In this document: piece by piece, positions 3,947 to 21,856 of the stretch
How the letters are laid out: each line of letters starts with the position of its first letter
Position numbering within the stretch: the first letter of the stretch is position 1
Origin: a virus
Lineage: Duplodnaviria > Heunggongvirae > Uroviricota > Caudoviricetes
Virus record (IMG/VR): IMGVR_UViG_2778261303_000009
Direction: 5' to 3' (one strand)
Length of the DNA stretch: 37,383 bases
Position numbers and translations under genes: made by a program
The notes under the pieces: model-generated
What the model was told of the DNA's origin: nothing
What the model saw: the letters and a program-made list of their open reading frames with translations, nothing else
The model's database searches: none

Positions 3947-4800
3947 GCACCATCCTGAAATGGGCGGGAAATAAAACCGCCATAATGTCCGAACTGAAAA
4001 AGCATCTTCCTGCTGGCCCGCGACTGGTTGAACCTTTCGCGGGTTCCTGTGCAGTGATGATGGAGACGGATTACCCCAGCTATCTTGTTGCGGATATTAA
4101 TCCTGATTTAATCAACCTCTATAAAAAGGTTGCTGCTGATTGTGAGGCGTTTATATCTCGTGCCAGAGCTTTATTTGAGGAAGCAAACAGGGAGGTGGCT
4201 TATTACAACATAAGGCAGGAGTTTAATTACTCCACTGAAATTACTGATTTCATGAAAGCGGTATATTTTCTGTATCTCAATCGTCATGGTTACCGTGGGT
4301 TATGTCGCTATAACAAGAGCGGGTATTTCAACATTCCCTACGGTAATTATAAAAATCCGTATTTCCCTGAAAAAGAAATTCGCGCATTTGCAGAGAAAGC
4401 CCAGCGGGCAACGTTTATCTGCGCCAGCTTTGATGAAACGCTGGCGATGTTGAAGGTGGGGGATGTGGTGTATTGCGATCCGCCTTATGACGGTACGTTT
4501 TCCGGCTATCACACTGATGGCTTCACTGAAGATGACCAGTATCACCTGGCATCCGTTCTTGAACATCGATCATCTGAAGGTCATCCGGTCATTGTTTCTA
4601 ACAGTGACACATCCCTGATTCGTTCGCTGTATCGCAATTTCACTCACCACTACATCAGGGCAAAACGCAGCATCGGCGTGTCGGCTGGCGAGAGTAAATC
4701 TGCAACAGAAATCATTGCTGTTTCCGGGGCGCGCTGCTGGGTGGGATTTGATTATTCGCGTGGCGTGGATAGTTCTGCCGTGTACGGAGTACGTGCATGA
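3943..4800 (+). CDS. dam: DNA adenine methyltransferase (Dam-like, D12-class N6-MTase)
   Basis: N-terminus [11 protein letters not shown] with FAGSCAV SAM-binding motif and catalytic DPPY motif (VYCDPPYDG). GGAGG RBS upstream; stop overlaps the A start (ATGA). Confidence 0.85.
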
Positions 4801-7208
4801 GCCATGCCGATATGAACAACTGCTGCGGCTTTAACGAGGCTGCCGCAGCGTTCTCATGGAACAGCCCGAAAAAGGCCATTAACCCTTATCTGGACCCGGC
4901 GGAAGTTGCGCCGGTTTCTGCGCTTTCAAACCTGATCACTCTGTACGCTGCCGATAACGAGCAGGAACAGTTGCGCCGCGAGGCACTGAGTGATCAGGTC
5001 TGGGAGCGTTATTTTTTTAATGAATCACGTGATCCTGTCCAGCACGAAATGGAGCAGGATAAGCTCATTAGCCGGGCAAAGCTGGCGCATGAGCAGCAGC
5101 GTTTTAATCCGGATATGGTCATTCTGGCGGACGTCAACGCCCAGCCTTCCCATATCAGCAAGCCGCTGATGCAACGTATTGAATACTTCAGCAGCCTGGG
5201 CAGGCCAAAGGCTTATTCCCGCTATTTACGTGAGACGATTAAGCCATGTCTGGAACGACTGGAGCATGTACGCGACAGCCAGCTATCTGCATCTTTTCGT
5301 TTTATGGCAAGCCATGTAGGGCTGGACGGCCTGCTGATTCTGCCTGAAATGAGTCAGGATCAGGTGAAACGCCTGTCTACCCTTGTCGCTGCGCATATGA
5401 GCATGTGCCTTGATGCAGCTTGTGGTGATTTGTATGCCACCGATGACGTTAAGCCAGAAGAAATCCGCAAGACATGGGAAAAGGTGGCAGCAGAAACCCT
5501 GCGACTGGATGTTATCCCGCCTGCGTTTGAGCAACTCCGCCGGAAAAGAAACCGCCGTAAACCCGTGCCCTATGAACTCATTCCGGGTTCGCTGGCGCGT
5601 ATGTTGTGCGCCGACTGGTGGTACCGGAAATTATGGAAGATGCGTTGCGAATGGCGGGAAGAGCAGTTGCGTGCTGTTTGCCTGGTCAGCAAAAAAGCAT
5701 CTCCCTATGTCAGCTATGAAGCCGTGATGCATAAACGTGAGCAGCGCCGTAAGTCGCTGGAGTTTTTTCGTTCTCATGAACTGGTGAACGAAGACGGCGA
5801 CACGCTGGACATGGAGGATGTGGTAAACGCCAGCAGCAGCAACCCTGCGCATCGCCGCAATGAGATGATGGCCTGTGTTAAAGGTCTGGAGCTTATCGCG
5901 GAAATGCGCGGTGACTGCGCCGTTTTCTACACCATCACCTGTCCGTCACGTTTCCATTCCACGCTAAATAACGGCAGGCCCAACCCGACCTGGACAAATG
6001 CGACAGTAAGACAAAGCAGTGATTATCTGGTCGGCATGTTTGCTGCATTTCGTAAGGCAATGCATAAAACCGGGCTGCGCTGGTATGGCGTGCGGGTGGC
6101 TGAGCCGCACCATGACGGTACTGTGCACTGGCATCTCATGTGTTTCATGCGCAAAAAAGACCGCCGCGCCATTACTGCATTGTTGCGTAAGTTTGCCATC
6201 CGTGAAGACCGCGAGGAGCTGGGCAATAACACGGGGCCACGCTTTAAGTCTGAGCTGATAAACCCGCGCAAAGGAACGCCGACAAGCTACATCGCGAAAT
6301 ACATCAGTAAGAACATTGACGGACGTGGTCTGGCTGGCGAGATCAGCAAGGAAACGGGTAAATCCCTGCGTGATAACGCCGAATACGTTAATGCCTGGGC
6401 GTCTCTGCATCGTGTTCAGCAGTTCCGCTTCTTTGGTATTCCGGGGCGTCAGGCTTACCGTGAACTTCGCTTGCTGGCTGGTCAGGCGGCAAGGCAACAG
6501 GGTGACAAAAAAGCAGGTGCGCCAGTACTGGATAACCCGCGCCTTGATGCCATTCTGGCTGCTGCTGATGCTGGCTGTTTTGCCACCTACATTATGAAGC
6601 AGGGCGGTGTACTGGTTCCCCGTAAATATCACCTCATCAGAACCGCTTATGAAATCAACGAAGAGCCGACCGCCTATGGCGATCACGGTATTCGTATTTA
6701 TGGCATCTGGTCACCCATTGCAGAGGGCAAGATCTGCACTCATGCGGTGAAGTGGAAAATGGTTCGTAAGGCCGTTGACGTTCAGGAGGCGGCAGCCGAC
6801 CAGGGCGCTTGCGCCCCTTGGACTCGTGGCAATAACTGTCCCCTTGCTGAAAATTTGAACCAACAGGAGAAAGATAAATCAGCTGATGGGGACACCAGAA
6901 CGGACATTACCCGCATGGATGACAAGGAGTTGCACGATTACCTGCACAGTATGAGCAAAAAAGAGCGCCGGGAACTGGCTGCAAGGTTACGTCAGGTGAA
7001 ACCGAAACGGCGTAAAGACTACAAACAGCGAATTACAGACCATCAGCGACAGCAGCTCGTCTATGAACTGAAGTCCAGGGGATTTGATGGCAGCGAGAAA
7101 GAAGTCGATTTGCTCCTTCGCGGTGGCAGTATTCCGTCAGGAGCAGGCCTGCGTATCTTCTATCGGAACCAGCGTTTGCAGGAAGATGATAAGTGGCGAA
7201 ACCTGTAG
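4797..7208 (+). CDS. A: Replication initiation endonuclease (P2 gpA / rolling-circle Rep family)
   Basis: 803-aa ORF with an HUH-like motif (TVHWHLMCF) and a double-tyrosine active-site motif ([10 protein letters not shown]) characteristic of P2 A-type replication proteins. Confidence 0.9.
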
Positions 7209-7303
7209 TGATTACGCTGGTTAACAATTTCTGCTCTTAATAATACCAGGCCTATCAGGCTGATGAACGTAAAAAAACGTTTTACATCAGTAAGATTATT
7301 ATA

Positions 7304-7323
7304 TACTGTAAATATAAACAGTG
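7304..7323 (+). promoter_or_regulatory. LexA (SOS) box TACTGTAAATATAAACAGTG
   Basis: Perfect CTGT-N8-ACAG palindrome with AT-rich centre, about 40 bp upstream of a strong RBS (AGGAGG 7355..7360) and the ATG at 7365. Confidence 0.6.
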
Positions 7324-7364
7324 GTTATGTATACAGTATTGCTTGTAGTGTCATAGGAGGAAAG

Positions 7365-7553
7365 ATGCAGGACTATTTTTTGGAGTCTTTGAAGCTCCAG
7401 CGCATTGATTTTTTTCTTAAGCTTGTAGCGGCCAGTGAGTGTAGTGATGAAGAGAAGAGACTGGCTATCCAGTGGGTTTCTGAGCTGACTGACGAGTTGA
7501 TGGCGAAAATTCGTAACTATGAATACAGCCGTACAATGGACGCTACCAGCTAG
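7365..7553 (+). CDS. SOS-regulated small protein (possible Tum-like antirepressor N-terminal part)
   Basis: 62-aa ORF, ATG at 7365 behind an AGGAGG RBS and the LexA box. Position after gene A corresponds to the LexA-controlled tum region of phage 186. Upstream in-frame extension to 7263 lacks an RBS. Confidence 0.5.
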   Translation: MQDYFLESLKLQRIDFFLKLVAASECSDEEKRLAIQWVSELTDELMAKIRNYEYSRTMDATS

Positions 7554-7563
7554 GGGAAAACCT

Positions 7564-7793
7564 ATGCGCATTGAAACAATGATCGATAAAGAGCAGTAAA
7601 TTAGCCAGGCGCTGTTAGAAGCCGTTGAATCCGAGCTTTACCGCAACCTGCAGCCTATCTATCCAAAGACAGCAATCCGCATTCGTAAAGGTTCGGCAAA
7701 CGGCGTTGAGCTGAGCGGCTTAAAACTTGATGAAGACAAAAGCGAGTGATGGAAATCATGCAGCATGTTTGGGAAGATGAGAGCTGGTTTTAA
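7564..7793 (+). pseudogene. DinI-family gene disrupted by an in-frame stop and a frameshift
   Basis: MRIETMIDKEQ then TAA at 7597..7599; the same frame continues ISQALLEAVESELYRNLQPIYPKTAIRIRKGSANGVELSGLKLDEDKSE to a stop at 7747. A shifted frame (7749..7793) encodes MEIMQHVWEDESWF, matching the DinI C-terminus (ETWESADDWF). Confidence 0.55.
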
Positions 7794-7816
7794 ATATCGA
7801 TTTAGGGGAAAATCTC

Positions 7817-7842
7817 AACCTCATGCAGTATCGCATGAGGTT
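7817..7842 (+). terminator. Hairpin (10-bp stem aacctcatgc / gcatgaggtt, 6-nt loop) downstream of the tum/dinI-like region
   Basis: Perfect inverted repeat followed by a weak T-rich stretch (cattt); marks the boundary before the AT-rich cargo region. Confidence 0.3.
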
Positions 7843-8010
7843 CATTTAGGCGAAATTTGTGGGAATTTTCTACAAGTTTATGAGCGAATAATTCATTTTT
7901 GATGTGTTAATTTCTTAACAATTTTGGCTTTAATTCTTGTAAAGCAAGACATAACGTTTATGATTGATAAATATAAAAAAATCTGAATAGGCAGGAAAGG
8001 AGTTTAACTC

Positions 8011-8526
8011 ATGCCTGGGTTAGAAAATGCACAGCAAAATCAAGTTGATGAAATCGTTCCAGCAATGCAAATCGCATTGGTCGAAGAAGATATAGAACAA
8101 CCCATCGCTGCCGAATACCTATACAGCCAGCATATAAGTGCGCTTGTGCCACAATGCCCTCCTGCCGAAGCGACAGAGTGCGATAGAGAATGCTGGCGTT
8201 TTACACTGAATCCTATAAGTCACAACTGCTTTTGGCCTCCAAAAAGAAGATCACCGCAGCGAATTGCTTCCGACGATGCGGAGGAGTGTTCTATGTGGGC
8301 GTTGTCTATGTATGAATCAGAGGCCCAGGCTACAAGAGCCTATACCATGTTAGCGAAGAAGATGAAAAATATCAGAAAAGCTATTGGTGATCACCTTGCT
8401 GTGGGTTCAGTAACCTGTAGTGATGGTAAATGTATGCCTGCTAGCAGAACCGGTCACTTTGATTTTCATCCTTATGTGGATGCGGATTTCGTTAACGGGT
8501 TCCAAGTAATACGAGCATTACCATGA
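8011..8526 (+). CDS. Cargo protein 1 (171 aa, no recognised domain)
   Basis: ATG at 8011 behind an AAGGAG RBS, after an AT-rich promoter-like spacer. First gene of a co-directional three-gene block; stop overlaps the next start (ATGA). Confidence 0.6.
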   Translation: MPGLENAQQNQVDEIVPAMQIALVEEDIEQPIAAEYLYSQHISALVPQCPPAEATECDRECWRFTLNPISHNCFWPPKRRSPQRIASDDAEECSMWALSMYESEAQATRAYTMLAKKMKNIRKAIGDHLAVGSVTCSDGKCMPASRTGHFDFHPYVDADFVNGFQVIRALP

Positions 8527-9614
8527 TAAAATTAGATGCTAGAAGAATAAATGCGTCAACTGTCGGAGATTATTCTTGGTACTCTGACCTCGTATATTTC
8601 GATGGTCCCCTAATTTGCTTGTTTAGAGGAAGCGGATATAAAGATGCTCTTTATGTCTGGCTCGATAATTCGGAGCGTGCCAATCGTTGGTGCTTGATTC
8701 CAGTATCAAGATCTACTTTGGACTCTTATCTTAACCAAAGAATGAGTTTAAGGGAGATTATACAATCGAGCGAATATACATATATCTGCGATCATTTTGC
8801 GGAAACAGGAAGGAAGCACTACAACATTTTGCACGTTGATAGTTTTCCTGAGGAGTATATGCCTGATGAAGATTCATATTTGTATGAAGAAATATGTACT
8901 GATGATGCATTGCTGTTGAAGCAGGAGCGCACCTCCAGTTATATGCTTGGATTAGATAATCAGTTGTTTATAAATGATTTATCTGTAATACCAAAAATTT
9001 TCGAACAGCTCTATTCTTTCCATTACGGATTGGCTCATTTAGGACGGTTGTCGATTAGAAATACCATGTTGCGTCTGATGGGGAATTGGACGGGTGGAAT
9101 ATCAGCAGTAAATATATTTTCAGGGTTGAAAAATGTTATTCCTGTTTTGCATCGACCAGAGATTAGCTCTCTCCAATACAATTCACCGGGGCATATTGAG
9201 TTAAATTTACTTCCTGATTTGGCTCAAAGTGTTCAAGATGCATCTATTCGTGTGAAAAGTGAGCTAGTTTATGACCGTCTGGAGAAAATGTATAAAAATA
9301 CATATGCATACTTCAAGGATAATGGGCTGTCAGGCTTTGATGAAGACGGCGGCATTGAAATTAGAAATATCGATAGTGATACCACCGAAAACCTACGTAA
9401 ACGCGTAAGAATATTTTTTAGATGTTTGGGGTGGTCAAGTTATCAAGCTCAGTTTGATCTGATCGGTGCCCATCCTCTACAACAATTACGTGCTGTGATG
9501 GCCTACTACAGGCGGCTCAAAATCTTGCGTGAATACATTGTCTCCGAGAAGCTTTTTGTTGGTCAGTCTCGGCTGTTACAGCAGCCACAAATTGCTCTGC
9601 CTCCTGAGGATTAG
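8523..9614 (+). CDS. Cargo protein 2 (363 aa, no recognised domain)
   Basis: Translationally coupled to protein 1. AT-rich codon usage unlike the flanking phage genes. Confidence 0.65.
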   Translation: MIKLDARRINASTVGDYSWYSDLVYFDGPLICLFRGSGYKDALYVWLDNSERANRWCLIPVSRSTLDSYLNQRMSLREIIQSSEYTYICDHFAETGRKHYNILHVDSFPEEYMPDEDSYLYEEICTDDALLLKQERTSSYMLGLDNQLFINDLSVIPKIFEQLYSFHYGLAHLGRLSIRNTMLRLMGNWTGGISAVNIFSGLKNVIPVLHRPEISSLQYNSPGHIELNLLPDLAQSVQDASIRVKSELVYDRLEKMYKNTYAYFKDNGLSGFDEDGGIEIRNIDSDTTENLRKRVRIFFRCLGWSSYQAQFDLIGAHPLQQLRAVMAYYRRLKILREYIVSEKLFVGQSRLLQQPQIALPPED

Positions 9615-9631
9615 ATTCTGCGTTATGCTGC

Positions 9632-10972
9632 ATGAATCCGCATGATCGTTTGAGGATCGTTCTAGATGAGGCCCGCCAGCAATGGCGGGCTTTTGCTAAT
9701 GTCATGCTGGCGCATGAAAACCGCTACATAAAGTGGGCAGGCGTGGCGGGGATACGATTGCGCGCTTATTCCAAAACGGCAATAATTAACTTTTCAAAAC
9801 ATCTACCAGGAAAGACAATGCTTATCTGCGAAGACCATATCGTCGAACCAAACGTAAAAAATCATGTTCGTCTGCAAACTGACAACAACATTTGTGTGTT
9901 TTGTAATGCTGTTACAAAATGCCTAGATACTGATTCGATAGAAGCTCGAAATTTGCTAAAAGCAATCTTACGTTATAACTTTGATGAAGTTCTCTATAAT
10001 ACACATATTGGTGGTGACTATTTCCCAGGTTTTTTATTAGCAGATGATTATATATTTTGCAGGGATATCCAAAGTTACGCTGAAGCATTTACTGATCTTG
10101 ATAGTGAAATATGGAGTATGGGGTTCACAACTGCAGGTGAGATTGATATACATTCAGGACATGATCAAGATGGCATGATGAATATGCCGCTTATGTCAAT
10201 TATTAACTCATATCATCCATTTATAGGAAAATTATCTAAGAAACTTGCTGAAGTAAATTACCATGAGTTTGAAGATGAATTGAGGGATATCATTAAAGAT
10301 TATGGGAATTCTTTTGCCAAAATAATTGAGGGTGGTTCTGTAGTTTATCGTGCTCGCGTAGGGACTGCTGGTTATAAAAAAGCTCATGAAGATTTTAACT
10401 ATGAAGGGAAGAAAATATTCGTTCCATACAAAAATAAAGAAATAGGTTCTGTTCCTCCTCTTAAAGCAACGGCAGGTAGAGCTAATAGAGTCGGGGTTTC
10501 ATACTTATATTGCGCGACTGATAGCTATACAGCGATCGCTGAGGTGAGACCTCATCCTACAGATGTAGTTTCTTTAGGTAAATTTAGCGTATCGCGAGCT
10601 TTAAAAGTATTCGATTTTTCATATCCAAACTTATTAGACTTTATCGAAAATGGCGATACTTTATTGAGAATGATTCCTTACGCTAAAATGGCGGGTATTT
10701 ATAATACCGCTACACCCCCCTCTTTGGAAGGAAGGTATAGTGTTTCGCAGCTCATATCTGACTGCATAAGAAAGGAAGGATACGATGGCATACAGTTTTC
10801 AAGCACTGTTGGTGAAGGGAAAAATTTAGTTGTGTTTAATCCTAGTTACATGGAATTTATTGAGGGGAGTTCAACGGTAATTGAAATTGACAAGGTACAA
10901 TATACATACAAAGAAAAACAAGTAGTAGGGATGAATGATCAGTGGGAGATTTATTATAATGAAGTTGAATAG
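9632..10972 (+). CDS. Cargo protein 3 (446 aa): N-terminal Cys/His-containing region plus C-terminal RES-like domain
   Basis: C-terminal half carries RES-domain-like motifs: VVYRARVG, then AGRANRVGVSYLYCATDSYTAIAEVRPH (GRxN...LYxA...AxxE), then GYDGIQFSSTVGEGKNLVVFNP (DGIxxxS...N.VVF). The start codon is uncertain because the RBS is weak. Confidence 0.65.
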   Translation: MNPHDRLRIVLDEARQQWRAFANVMLAHENRYIKWAGVAGIRLRAYSKTAIINFSKHLPGKTMLICEDHIVEPNVKNHVRLQTDNNICVFCNAVTKCLDTDSIEARNLLKAILRYNFDEVLYNTHIGGDYFPGFLLADDYIFCRDIQSYAEAFTDLDSEIWSMGFTTAGEIDIHSGHDQDGMMNMPLMSIINSYHPFIGKLSKKLAEVNYHEFEDELRDIIKDYGNSFAKIIEGGSVVYRARVGTAGYKKAHEDFNYEGKKIFVPYKNKEIGSVPPLKATAGRANRVGVSYLYCATDSYTAIAEVRPHPTDVVSLGKFSVSRALKVFDFSYPNLLDFIENGDTLLRMIPYAKMAGIYNTATPPSLEGRYSVSQLISDCIRKEGYDGIQFSSTVGEGKNLVVFNPSYMEFIEGSSTVIEIDKVQYTYKEKQVVGMNDQWEIYYNEVE

Positions 10973-10981
10973 GTAAATGTG

Positions 10982-11003
10982 GCTCCGCAATTTTTGGCGG
11001 AGC
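10982..11003. terminator. Bidirectional hairpin between convergent cargo operon and portal gene (gctccgc-aatttttg-gcggagc)
   Basis: 7-bp perfect stem with a T-rich loop and flank, in the 44-bp gap between the stop of cargo protein 3 (10972) and the stop of Q (11017). Confidence 0.35.
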
Positions 11004-11016
11004 TAATTTTATGATG

Positions 11017-12048
11017 TTAACCTAATGAGTATGAGTCAAATCTTATTGTTTTATCTCCTAGCCAATTGTTAATTTCGACCATTCTTTTCTGTAATGGAAT
11101 AAGCTCATTTCGCACAAATACATTAGCCGCCTTCTCCACATCCCCAAATCCCCCAACATTATTCGGCATAATCCCCATCATTTGCGGCGGTACACGGTGC
11201 GCAGCCATCATGTCATCACGGCTCACGTTCTTGATATTCAGAAACTCATCCTTCGCTGCGACTTCTGACAACGGGATAATCTGAAGTCCGTCCTTTTTGC
11301 CGTTAGGCGAGTACATAAACAGATTGCGGAAGTTGCCAGGGCCTTTGGCGCTTTTCATCGCATTGCGGAGGTTGTTCACATCCTCCTGGTTCTGCGCTGC
11401 ATCGGTCATGTACATGATGAAGCCTGCATGACTACCGTTAATGTAATATTTGCGGCGGAACAGCGTGGCGGACTCGTTGAGCAAAGCGGATGGGATGGCA
11501 GAAAGATAGCCGGGCAGGCCGTAGATCTCCTGATTAATATCCGGTTCCATCAGATGAAAAATGCTGCCTTTCGTGAACTGATACGGCTGGGTTGTCATAC
11601 CGTATTGCACAAACCAGTAGGTATCCAGGTCTAACCCGCGTCGGGTATATTTTGCCAGGGCAGGCTCAAGGGCGATAACTTCACCGAAGCGGTTCGTGCG
11701 TTTCTCCAGGTAGGCGTTACCAAATACCAGGTAGTCCTGCACAAAACGTGAAAAAGCCTGCTGGCTGAGCAGCGGGTGAGGGATATAGGTACTGGTCAGA
11801 ATGTTGCACTTTACTGCAATCGGGGAACTGTGATGCACGGCAGCGCGGAAGGTGCGCGCCAGTCCGTCAAAGCTGACGGGCGGCTCATACCAACGGTCCA
11901 TCTGTACGCATTCCACATAGTCCAGTAGTTCGCGGCGGTCCAGAACAGGAACGGGATCACCGAAGCTGAATGCTTCGGCTGTAGTTTGACTTTTATGCTG
12001 GATCTGGTTCGTCGACGCAGCGCGGTTCTTCTTACTCTTTCCCATCAA
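11017..12048 (-). CDS. Q: Portal protein (P2 gpQ-like)
   Basis: 343-aa ORF resembling P2-family portal proteins as recalled. Overlaps the terminase gene start, as in the P2 Q-P operon. Confidence 0.9.
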   Translation of the reverse strand: MMGKSKKNRAASTNQIQHKSQTTAEAFSFGDPVPVLDRRELLDYVECVQMDRWYEPPVSFDGLARTFRAAVHHSSPIAVKCNILTSTYIPHPLLSQQAFSRFVQDYLVFGNAYLEKRTNRFGEVIALEPALAKYTRRGLDLDTYWFVQYGMTTQPYQFTKGSIFHLMEPDINQEIYGLPGYLSAIPSALLNESATLFRRKYYINGSHAGFIMYMTDAAQNQEDVNNLRNAMKSAKGPGNFRNLFMYSPNGKKDGLQIIPLSEVAAKDEFLNIKNVSRDDMMAAHRVPPQMMGIMPNNVGGFGDVEKAANVFVRNELIPLQKRMVEINNWLGDKTIRFDSYSLG

Positions 12049-18552: not shown

Positions 18553-18946
18553 AGCGGTGCCTTATGTCCGCAATAACCCGGACAAACTGCATCTGTTTGT
18601 GGATAACGGTTCGCTGGTTGCTACGGGGGCCAGCTCCATGTCATGGGAGTACCGTTACACCCTGAACGTGGTGATTGAGGATTTCAGCGGCGACCAGAAT
18701 CTGTTGATGGCCCCGGTTTTATTGTGGCTGCGGGATAACCAGCCTGATGCCATCAATAACCCGGCGTTACGGGAAAAGTTATTCACCTTTGAGGTGGATA
18801 TTTTGCGCAACGATGTCTGTGATATCAGCCTTAACCTGCAACTGACGGAGCGTGTGCTGGTCAGCACTGACGGCAGTGTGTCGAGTGTTGAAGCTGTAGA
18901 GGAACCCGATGAACCTGAAGAAATGTGGACGGTGAAACGTGGCTGA
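18515..18946 (+). CDS. R: Tail completion protein (P2 gpR-like)
   Basis: Likely GTG start at 18515 behind an AGGAG RBS. Sequence (FVDNGSLVATGASSMSWEYRYTLNVVIEDFSGD...) matches gpR as recalled. Confidence 0.75.
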   Translation: MNKPQSLRHALNKAVPYVRNNPDKLHLFVDNGSLVATGASSMSWEYRYTLNVVIEDFSGDQNLLMAPVLLWLRDNQPDAINNPALREKLFTFEVDILRNDVCDISLNLQLTERVLVSTDGSVSSVEAVEEPDEPEEMWTVKRG

Positions 18947-19385
18947 ATTGCAGAAGGTGGACGACTGGCTGAGTGCCTTGCTGGCGAATCTGGAGCCAGC
19001 CGCAAGAAGCCGCATGATGCGCCAGCTGGCGCAGGAACTGCGCCGGACACAGCAGCAGAATATCAGGATGCAGCGCAACCCTGATGGCAGCAGTTATGAA
19101 CCGCGCAGGGTAACAGCACGCAGTAAAAAAGGCCGTATCAAACGGCAGATGTTTGCAAAGCTGCGCACCACAAAATACCTGAAAACCGCCGCCAGCGCGG
19201 ATTCTGCCAGCGTGCAGTTTGAAGGTAAGGTGCAGCGTATTGCCCGTGTTCATCACTACGGCCTGCGCGATCGCGTCAGTCGCAAAGGACCGGAGGTCCG
19301 TTATGCAGAGCGTCGCCTGCTGGGTGTAAATGATGATTTATACTTTTTAACACGACGCATTTTATTGCAATGGTTGGCGAGGTAG
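18939..19385 (+). CDS. S: Tail completion protein (P2 gpS-like)
   Basis: GTG start overlapping the R stop. Sequence RNPDGSSYEPRR... is typical of gpS. Confidence 0.75.
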   Translation: MAELQKVDDWLSALLANLEPAARSRMMRQLAQELRRTQQQNIRMQRNPDGSSYEPRRVTARSKKGRIKRQMFAKLRTTKYLKTAASADSASVQFEGKVQRIARVHHYGLRDRVSRKGPEVRYAERRLLGVNDDLYFLTRRILLQWLAR

Positions 19386-19442: not shown

Positions 19443-21197
19443 TCAATCCCAAAATAAATTATTATTAATATTGCTCATATCGAAAGTGAAGTTCTTTTCT
19501 GTAATAGTTTCGTACCTTTGTTCATAGATTATTTTTACATATCTAAACCCCTGTGTTACAGAGCGAATTTTTCGGGGTTTTGATGCAAGCATAACAAGTA
19601 TTTCAAATACTTTATCAAGATAGTTGTGGGTGTGTTCAACTAAAAGGGGGGTAAATTTACCACCTTTTCCAGAATGGACTATGTTATTTCTTGTTCTATA
19701 AATTCTTCTGAGTTGCCATTCTAATCTTAACTTATGGTTATCTAAAGTTGATTTAATTGACTCCGGGGATGAAACTATGTTTTTTATATACTCGAAACGA
19801 TCTGAAAGCAATGTGTAATCACGAAATTTAGCGGATAAAGATTCCCTTACTGATTCGTATTCAGGAAGAATCATTATATTGGCTAGTTTGTGTTTCGCTT
19901 TTGCTCCAGGTATTCCTTTTAAATGTGAGTTTAGCATGTGCCTATTCCATAACAGCAGGTCTCGAGTAAGGTTGTCAATTAAGGAGTCTATATATGTAAT
20001 ATTCAGGAATGGAATTATACTTGCAGTAATATGTTCTATTGTTGCTTGATCCTTGGATTTAGTGTCTGTCGGCACTAATGATTCAAGAGCTATCCATAGA
20101 TTTAAAAGCTGATTTTCAACATTTTCACTTTTTAATGCCATTGAATGTAATTGAATACTTCTCAAGAACTTGGCAAATGAACTATTTTCTAGAGAAAACT
20201 CAGACATCAATGATTCAAGACGTTTCTTGGCCTTTTCATGCTTTAAGTCCTTGCATTTTTTCATGGGGTTAAGTCTTTCAGCCACTTTCAAAGAGTCTGT
20301 ATCAGTTATAACGAAAGCTTCATTTGACCAAGTAGGTTTATCTTTATGATGATAAATATTTAAAAAGGATGATGCTAATTTAAGTAGGTTTTCAGCATTC
20401 TCTCTTGCTGAATAAGAATCAAAAGCTTCTATATTTGATACGCAAACTATCTTCTTTCTTTGCAGATTTCTAAAAAAAACATGTTGGGAAAATTCTTCTG
20501 GTGGTTCTTTCTCAACAGACAAAGAGAGTCTTTCGAAAGTTGGCTCGGCGCCTAAAAACACTGGTTCAACAATAAAATATATTTTGTATTTCTTTTTTTC
20601 GAGTTTTATTAAATCAAAAAAAGAAGAGACATCAGTGTTATTTGAGATTTTATTATTCCCATAATAAAAAAATTGCTGGGTTAAATTCTTAAGATTATGT
20701 TGGCTAAAGCCAATGTAGAGTAATAAGCTGATATAATTTCTTGTTAGCTTGCGTATGATGCTTCTTTCCCAGTTTGGGGATGATAACTCTTGGGTGATAA
20801 GTTCTTCACTTTTTTCTTTATATAATTTGGGTGGTAATTGAATGACCAGCATTTCAATTATTGAGCTTCTCTCTTTAGGGCTTATGTTAGTATTTTTTAG
20901 TTTGTTGAGAAAAGCTTGGTAAGCATCGCCTAATAAATGTTGTGCTACTTTATCACATGACAAGTTATGTATTAATTCTGCGGTTAAATGTTCAATATTT
21001 TTAGGCTGAATAATACCATCCTCAACATCTTTAATTGTATTTAAAGTTTCTATTCCAATTGTTGGGGTATTCATCACTGAGGGTTTGTATGTGTCCAGTG
21101 TATAGTCAAATAGCATTTCATCCAGTAATTGCGCAAAATATACTAGTGCTTTACAAGTGTCTGGGCAATCCCATTTATACAAAGAACGAAATTTCAT
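19443..21197 (-). CDS. Cargo protein (584 aa) with C-terminal HEPN-type RNxxxH motif; candidate abortive-infection RNase
   Basis: Very AT-rich ORF antisense to the late operon, between S and V. Near the C-terminus, LEWQLRRIYRTRNNIVHSGKGG contains RNNIVH (R-N-x3-H), encoded at 19674..19691. Confidence 0.65.
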   Translation of the reverse strand: MKFRSLYKWDCPDTCKALVYFAQLLDEMLFDYTLDTYKPSVMNTPTIGIETLNTIKDVEDGIIQPKNIEHLTAELIHNLSCDKVAQHLLGDAYQAFLNKLKNTNISPKERSSIIEMLVIQLPPKLYKEKSEELITQELSSPNWERSIIRKLTRNYISLLLYIGFSQHNLKNLTQQFFYYGNNKISNNTDVSSFFDLIKLEKKKYKIYFIVEPVFLGAEPTFERLSLSVEKEPPEEFSQHVFFRNLQRKKIVCVSNIEAFDSYSARENAENLLKLASSFLNIYHHKDKPTWSNEAFVITDTDSLKVAERLNPMKKCKDLKHEKAKKRLESLMSEFSLENSSFAKFLRSIQLHSMALKSENVENQLLNLWIALESLVPTDTKSKDQATIEHITASIIPFLNITYIDSLIDNLTRDLLLWNRHMLNSHLKGIPGAKAKHKLANIMILPEYESVRESLSAKFRDYTLLSDRFEYIKNIVSSPESIKSTLDNHKLRLEWQLRRIYRTRNNIVHSGKGGKFTPLLVEHTHNYLDKVFEILVMLASKPRKIRSVTQGFRYVKIIYEQRYETITEKNFTFDMSNINNNLFWD

Positions 21198-21231: not shown

Positions 21232-21277
21232 AATACATATGTTTTAAGATAAATGCAAGATGTTGAATCATTGCCCT

Positions 21278-21856
21278 ATGAACGCACAACTTACCGAAAT
21301 CATGCGCCTTATCACCAACCTGATCCGCACTGGGGTAGTCACCGAAGTGGACCGGGAACACTGGCTTTGTCGGGTGAAAACGGGCGACCTTGAAACCAAC
21401 TGGATTAACTGGCTGACACTGCGCGCGGGCAAATCGCGCACCTGGTGGAAACCGTCTGTGGGCGAGCAGGTTGTGCTATTCAGCCTGGGTGGCAATCTGG
21501 AAACCGCGTTTGCCCTACCTGCTGTCTACTCAAATCAGTTTCCACCACCTTCTGACTCTGAGGACGGCAACGTGGTTGAGTACCCGGACGGTGGCAGGTT
21601 TGAATACGAACCCGCCACCGGGCGCTGGTATGTCAGGGGCATCAAATCTATGGTCATTGAGGCTGCCGACAATATCACCCTGAAAACCAGTGAGTTTGTA
21701 CTGGAGGCTGACCGCACACGCATTAACAGCGAAGTAGTGATCAATGGTGGTGTTACCCAGGGCGGCGGTGCAATGAGTTCTAACGGAATTGTGGTTGATG
21801 CACATCAGCATACTGGCGTCCTGAAAGGCGGTGACACAACCGGAGGCCCGGTATGA
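21278..21856 (+). CDS. V: Baseplate spike/assembly protein (P2 gpV-like)
   Basis: Aligns with the P2 gpV N-terminus (MN...IRTG...WLTLRAGKSRTWWKPSVGEQV). An alternative in-frame ATG lies at 21260. Confidence 0.8.
   Translation: MNAQLTEIMRLITNLIRTGVVTEVDREHWLCRVKTGDLETNWINWLTLRAGKSRTWWKPSVGEQVVLFSLGGNLETAFALPAVYSNQFPPPSDSEDGNVVEYPDGGRFEYEPATGRWYVRGIKSMVIEAADNITLKTSEFVLEADRTRINSEVVINGGVTQGGGAMSSNGIVVDAHQHTGVLKGGDTTGGPV

Follow-up and report, generated by a model that had tools for sequence, protein, structure and literature searches.

Does the DNA between replication gene A and portal gene Q of IMG/VR virus record IMGVR_UViG_2778261303_000009 carry one new antiphage system or several known ones? 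The record, a Caudoviricetes sequence of 37,383 nucleotides (nt) analyzed over its whole length and called the window below, holds three open reading frames (ORFs) at this place. A preliminary description, made from the sequence alone, had read them as a three-gene operon that matched no named system. Our analysis leads to a different answer, to which we assign a probability of about 85%: a cos-proximal P2/186-like hotspot carries two independent abortive-infection (Abi) defenses, one on each side of the cohesive-end site (cos), and both have been described already. They are PD-T4-10 (Vassallo et al. 2022, Nat Microbiol) and a member of the aRES family (Osterman et al., bioRxiv 2026, doi 10.64898/2026.01.28.702374).

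The region between gene A (4797-7208) and gene Q (11017-12048, - strand) consists of three + strand ORFs of 171, 363 and 446 amino acids (aa), at 8011-8526, 8523-9614 and 9632-10972. Each has dozens of homologues of conserved length, and they are thus real genes rather than chance ORFs. The guanine-cytosine (GC) content is 0.36-0.45 across the three ORFs, as opposed to 0.52-0.60 in the flanking phage genes, and the first two ORFs overlap at an ATGA. The ORFs, their low GC content and the overlap had been recorded in the preliminary description, as had the promoter-like spacer and strong ribosome-binding site (RBS) before the first gene, the hairpin abutting the portal gene, and a RES-like domain in the third protein; its view of the region as horizontally acquired antiphage cargo in the recognized A-to-Q hotspot of P2 was likewise upheld. 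The features on which the argument turns are the following.

7937-7964, + strand: promoter-like site TTGTAA-16-TATGAT, candidate promoter of PD-T4-10 (consensus scan)
8011-8526, + strand: predicted PD-T4-10A (antitoxin), 171 aa (PADLOC PDLC04023, E 9.8e-76, profile positions 3-148 of 148)
8523-9614, + strand: predicted PD-T4-10B (toxin), 363 aa, with a DUF6575-like N-terminus (PADLOC E 1.3e-172, profile positions 1-351 of 353)
9625-9765, no strand: conserved cos region, with the 19-nt cohesive-end sequence GGCGTGGCGGGGATACGAT at 9740-9758, then TGCGCGC
9632-9817, + strand: spurious 5' extension of the third ORF, 62 codons through cos DNA
9668-9697, + strand: GC-rich hairpin followed by a U-run, terminator-like (-24 kcal/mol, z -4.3)
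9818-10972, + strand: stand-alone RES protein assigned to the aRES family, 384 aa (Zn ribbon C4, H7, C26, C29; helical N-terminal domain at about 30-170; RES domain at about 175-346)
10980-11005, no strand: terminator hairpin of the RES cassette, facing the portal gene (-19.7 kcal/mol on the + strand, z -5.5; -13.3 on the - strand)

Judging from their profile matches, the first two genes are A and B of PD-T4-10, a two-gene system of Escherichia coli ECOR65 in which B is toxic and A neutralizes B (Vassallo et al. 2022). The ECOR65 copy, which gives Abi protection against T-even phages (Vassallo et al. 2022), agrees with the window in the A/B gene order, in the overlap of the two ORFs, in its length of 1,604 bp (8011-9614 in the window; 196254-197857 in the supplement coordinates of the validated copy), and in its location, which is the gpA-portal interval of a P2-like prophage. 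In PD-T4-10, A has about 150-171 aa and B about 353-363 aa, and the two window proteins fall within these ranges. The clone that was tested contained A and B only, and 101 bp of native upstream DNA was sufficient (Vassallo et al. 2022). Its end maps to 3 nt inside the RES gene, and thus A and B alone confer defense against T4. The promoter-like site at 7937-7964 falls inside the 101-bp upstream stretch of the published clone and probably functions as the PD-T4-10 promoter; an AAGGAG RBS lies 8 nt upstream of ATG 8011. The exact PD-T4-10A protein is present on 524 contigs. The B protein is recorded less uniformly: in the cluster of 8523-9611, many records from Salmonella, E. coli and Klebsiella give it 251 aa and others 363 aa, and PADLOC also holds a 244-position PD-T4-10B model, which covers aa 113-354 only. 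This split in length reflects either inconsistent start calls or a shorter form.

We compared 7200-11020 by megablast with 5,426 complete E. coli genomes. The PD-T4-10 segment was found at 99% identity in 13 records, and all matches ended at about 9765. A block of about 140 bp (9625-9765) was common to about 1,100 records, where it stood in front of unrelated genes. Comparison with the reference records of P2 and 186 identified this block as the cos region: GGCGTGGCGGGGATACGAT is identical to 186 cos at 16 of 19 positions and to P2 cos at 14 of 19, and the flanks CATnAAAACCGC and TGCGCGC are common to the window, P2 and 186. The site at 9740-9758 is the only one of its kind in the window. The hairpin at 9668-9697 belongs to the conserved cos flank, is partly kept in related loci L001-L004, and would act as a terminator between PD-T4-10B and cos. 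In packaged DNA, the genes before and after cos are at opposite genome ends.

The cos site lies inside the third ORF as it was called (9632-10972, + strand, 446 aa). Met63 of this ORF, encoded by ATG 9818, corresponds to the first residue of each of the 30 full-length homologues (27-74% identity) and opens the motif M-x-I-C. An AGGA-type RBS precedes this ATG in every locus, and the distance from the end of cos to the conserved Met was 57-60 nt in eight loci. A Shine-Dalgarno (SD) sequence was looked for before ATG 9632 and none was found. Only in the window and its closest relatives (L136, L009 and L011) does an open frame of 70 codons span cos; the frame closes within 1-14 codons in L010, L002-4 and L139, which carry 89%, 73% and 55% homologues. 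Annotated lengths within one 90% cluster are 384, 422, 446, 481 and 494 aa. On the evidence of these homologues, the real third gene is 9818-10972, of 384 aa, and the 446-aa ORF is over-extended across cos. With the start at ATG 9818, genes 2 and 3 are really 203 nt apart, and this interval holds both the hairpin and cos. The gap given as 18 bp in the preliminary description is 17 nt for the ORF as called, and this tight spacing, like the 446-aa ORF itself, is an artifact of an open frame through cos DNA.

Coding annotations over cos DNA occur repeatedly. They include the 72-aa phrog_28685 family, a 54-aa "hypothetical protein" in L004, and RES proteins of 422-494 aa; NCBI WP_157922086.1 is among them. 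All of these look like artifacts. A match of phrog_28685 to aa 1-47 of the 446-aa ORF was considered as a real small protein and rejected, the stretch being the cos DNA itself.

The RES domain of the third protein matched Pfam PF08808 with an E value of 2.9e-18, its catalytic R, E and S residues were invariant in the family alignment, and the fold of the protein matches that of RES toxins. The AlphaFold 2 (AF2) model of the 384-aa form was well folded from residue 1, with the 170-aa N-terminal region folded confidently. Anantharaman et al. 2013 predicted fusions of RES proteins with a helical HEPN/RES-NTD1 domain, of which some also bear a Zn ribbon. Stand-alone antiphage RES-domain proteins, named aRES, were since reported to protect E. 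coli: three homologues convert NAD+ to nicotinamide and ADP-ribose (ADPR)-1''-phosphate when triggered by infection, leading to growth arrest, and phages counter them by a Macro-domain phosphatase and by aRad1 inhibitors (Osterman et al., bioRxiv 2026). Gene 3 had no defense-family match in PADLOC, NCBIfam or PHROGs, which at first suggested novelty; the aRES preprint removed that suggestion.

When the family profile was aligned by hhalign with aRES of E. coli UC5 (sequence from the Osterman supplement), the probability was 99.65% (E 4e-25) over 321 columns, collinear from residue 1 and the Zn ribbon onward. In a profile-profile comparison the N-terminal region alone matched relatives that bear PF18870 at 96.4% (E 1e-9); these relatives score PF18870 at 30-31 bits. 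Gene 3 shares with aRES a single-gene organization with no operon partner, an N-terminal Zn ribbon, a helical HEPN/RES-NTD1-like domain, a C-terminal RES domain, and a site among defense genes. Its length is inside the aRES range of 300-600 aa with either start (384 aa, or 446 aa as annotated). Gene 3 represents a divergent subfamily, with 31% identity to UC5 aRES over the RES domain and a first zinc knuckle that is CxxH rather than CxxC, and the gene lies in the cos-portal slot of P2-like phages, whereas the text of the aRES preprint does not mention prophages. A search of PDB sequences with the RES family profile gave no match at E values up to 1. On the strength of the profile alignments, gene 3 was assigned as a divergent, phage-borne member of the aRES family.

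Two further RES homologues occupy other positions. In Yersinia proxima (L137, 7001-8143), a 51% homologue stands by itself just beyond the integrase of a 186-like prophage, in another cargo position. A 36% homologue (L138, 7001-12669) is chromosomal; 78 nt downstream of it are co-directional genes of 964, 326 and 127 aa, for which Pfam searches gave no match.

A scan of IMG/VR with the cos core picked out 82 related phage contigs in which a complete portal gene lies downstream of cos. From cos to the portal gene these contigs have between 177 and 3,296 bp. Only 5 of them stay under 260 bp; in the other 77 (about 94%) the slot was filled, with 0.5-3.3 kb. The distance from gpA to cos ranged from 492 to 3,600 bp and varied independently of the cos-portal distance. 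The cos-portal slot contained 109 ORFs in 73 protein clusters; 107 of the ORFs pointed toward the portal gene, and many matched PADLOC families, including retron reverse transcriptases, AbiL and AriA. Each cos-portal cassette brings its own terminal hairpin (L016-L135; window 9759-11016). The hairpin at 10980-11005 is in the position of P2 tQ; it is kept among RES loci and differs in AbiU and PDC-S49 loci. In P2 and 186 the cos-portal interval is a gene-free stretch of about 190 bp and all of the cargo lies before cos, whereas the window and the 77 filled contigs also carry cargo between cos and Q. The survey shows that the A-to-Q hotspot of P2 consists of two cargo slots with cos between them. 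The old/tin hotspot of P2 (Rousset et al. 2022; hotspot #1 of Vassallo) is the same gpA-gpQ locus beside cos, with diverse defense cargo, and the two-slot picture adds detail to the hotspot as those two studies described it and is not in conflict with it.

The contents of the two slots assort independently. In the 13 complete E. coli genomes with a 99%-identical PD-T4-10, cos is followed by an AIPR/AbiU gene (PADLOC E 1e-112) and not by RES. RES homologues were found in 6 of the 5,426 complete genomes. Where they follow cos, they sit behind a PifA-like KAP nucleoside triphosphatase, PDC-S49, or nothing; two IMG/VR contigs (L009 and L011) have a 94%-identical RES gene and no other cargo, and the genes preceding the 55% homologue are different again. 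The RES cassette carries the terminal hairpin along with it. By this comparison PD-T4-10 and the RES gene are two separable modules. The operon of the preliminary description is thus divided between genes 2 and 3 by cos and a terminator-like hairpin.

Under this interpretation, PD-T4-10 would be transcribed from its own promoter as a two-gene toxin-antitoxin (TA) module, and T-even infection would free toxin B from A and abort the infection, as published for the ECOR65 copy of identical length. Beyond the hairpin and cos, 9818-10972 would form a single-gene RES cassette with its own RBS and terminator. The Zn ribbon and the helical HEPN/RES-NTD1-like domain presumably hold the RES domain off until infection; the RES domain would then turn NAD+ into nicotinamide and ADPR-1''-phosphate, arresting growth and starving the phage. 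This chemistry is proposed from the homology to tested aRES proteins and from the conserved catalytic residues.

Several observations weigh against our interpretation. A hmmscan for PF18870 was negative in 31 of 31 family members, although the aRES prototype itself scored 21 bits, also below the cutoff. The inclusion rule of the aRES study is an HHsearch probability of >80% to PF18870 in Pfam, and our assignment is based on hhalign rather than on that rule. The RES protein is known here from its sequence only and is 31% identical to the tested UC5 aRES in a pairwise comparison over the RES domain. A scan of the + strand with the sigma-70 consensus found no promoter site for the RES gene (TTGCGC-17-AATAAT, seen by eye at the right cos edge, is weak and below the scan threshold, and is not claimed as a promoter). 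In a prophage, where cos is continuous DNA, transcription may read through from PD-T4-10 into the RES gene. A few contigs of E. coli and Enterobacter hormaechei also carry the exact trio PD-T4-10-cos-RES, a recurrence that is compatible with cooperation but is not evidence for it and is expected from the spread of one phage lineage.

These points bear on the proposal that the three genes form one co-transcribed, integrated and previously undescribed defense system. The genes are indeed co-directional, adjacent and all low in GC, the trio recurs, and cos is uninterrupted in the lysogen. However, genes 1 and 2 have been validated alone, the modules are found apart in many loci, genes 2 and 3 are separated by cos and by a hairpin of -24 kcal/mol, and both parts match named systems. 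We regard a single system as extremely improbable, and the proposal as largely refuted already. A milder variant is that read-through in a lysogen with sealed cos co-expresses the modules as a paired, layered Abi unit, even with a cos-spanning isoform, or that the P2-borne CxxH subfamily has another trigger or product; we give this a small chance. That the cos-spanning 446-aa protein is genuinely produced as an isoform, restricted to DNA in which cos is sealed (a prophage or circularized DNA), is very unlikely in its own right. The 70 codons open across cos and the NCBI annotation of 446 aa would agree with it, but an SD sequence precedes ATG 9818 and not ATG 9632, the extension is cos DNA that is conserved whatever gene lies downstream, the 89%, 73% and 55% homologues have a closed frame, every homologue begins at Met63, and the AF2 model is well folded from the first residue of the short form.

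The RES protein could also be the toxin of a conventional TA pair, its antitoxin being PD-T4-10A, a small ORF or RNA within the cos region, or the product of some other prophage gene. All structurally solved RES toxins (MbcT, ParT, Res, NatT-type, VPA0770) have cognate antitoxins, and an unrestrained NAD+ phosphorylase should be toxic. Yet no cognate antitoxin gene of the Xre-HTH, MbcA or ParS type was found beside the RES gene in 11 contexts, and between cos, 57-60 nt upstream, and the portal terminator the P2 slot has no room for one. L009 and L011 contain no cargo besides the RES gene, and the tested aRES proteins function alone. In comparison with the RES toxins of type II TA systems (Xre-RES, MbcTA, ParST, NatRT), gene 3 lacks an adjacent antitoxin and is twice the size (384 aa as opposed to about 150-250 aa for a small single-domain toxin), and its sensor-like N-terminal extension of 170 aa is not present in TA toxins. 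The RES protein is thus not a member of the two-gene type II TA systems, and we consider a missed antitoxin highly unlikely. That the protein is instead an ADP-ribosyltransferase acting on a protein or nucleic-acid target, like ParT, or a phage offense factor for host takeover or counter-defense, rather than an enzyme of NAD+ depletion, is also unlikely, if somewhat less so.

The main value of the analysis is a correction: with hidden Markov model libraries, the cos site and the recent literature, an apparently new three-gene system became two named ones. The preliminary description stands as to the genes, their GC content, the hotspot, the RBS, the hairpin and the RES domain; its single system, its claim of novelty and its 18-bp gap do not. 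It had named homology to a known system in advance as a possible refutation, and the searches returned such homology (PADLOC PD-T4-10_A and PD-T4-10_B; the hhalign match to aRES). ORF callers, and NCBI with its 446 aa, can run through a P2-like cos, producing false N-termini and false operon spacing. PADLOC 2.0.0 (2023) has no aRES model, and as a result automated annotation flags only PD-T4-10 here. The temperate phage would stack two mechanistically different Abi defenses, the PD-T4-10 toxin and NAD+ phosphorolysis.

The hotspot is bordered by backbone genes of the phage.

4797-7208, + strand: replication endonuclease gpA, 803 aa, left border of the hotspot
7365-7553, + strand: small backbone ORF of 62 aa, phrog_698, function unassigned (E 9.6e-35 on aa 35-96)
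7564-7793, + strand: remnant of a broken DinI-like backbone gene, with no intact ORF found there
11017-12048, - strand: portal protein gpQ, 343 aa, right border of the hotspot

The gpA gene is 97-99% identical to RefSeq "replication endonuclease" genes in P2-like prophages of E. coli, and PF05840 was found in gpA of the identical locus L136. All related loci list the counterpart of 7365-7553 as a hypothetical protein of 62 aa, and the 96-aa ORF starting at 7263 is probably over-extended. The DinI-like gene is intact in other P2-like prophages; in L001 (E. coli, 99.6% identical) it is annotated as "DinI-like family protein, frameshifted." A hairpin at 7812-7842 follows the broken gene. On the right side, PF04860 was found in gpQ of L136, and gpQ is 89-96% identical across related loci.

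An integrase (1-1131, - strand) and a CI-type repressor (1447-2022, - strand; PF07022, PF16452) make up a 186-like immunity region, and their type indicates that prophage regulation is 186-like rather than P2-like. A probable second cargo site is flanked by tail gene S (18939-19385) and baseplate gene V (21260-21856); inserted there, in the most AT-rich stretch of the window (GC 0.31-0.34), is a 584-aa ORF (19443-21197, - strand). The C-terminal 200 aa of this ORF matched PADLOC ApeA with an E value of 1.2e-12, and a Pfam search gave no match. The ORF probably encodes a divergent ApeA-like single-gene defense.

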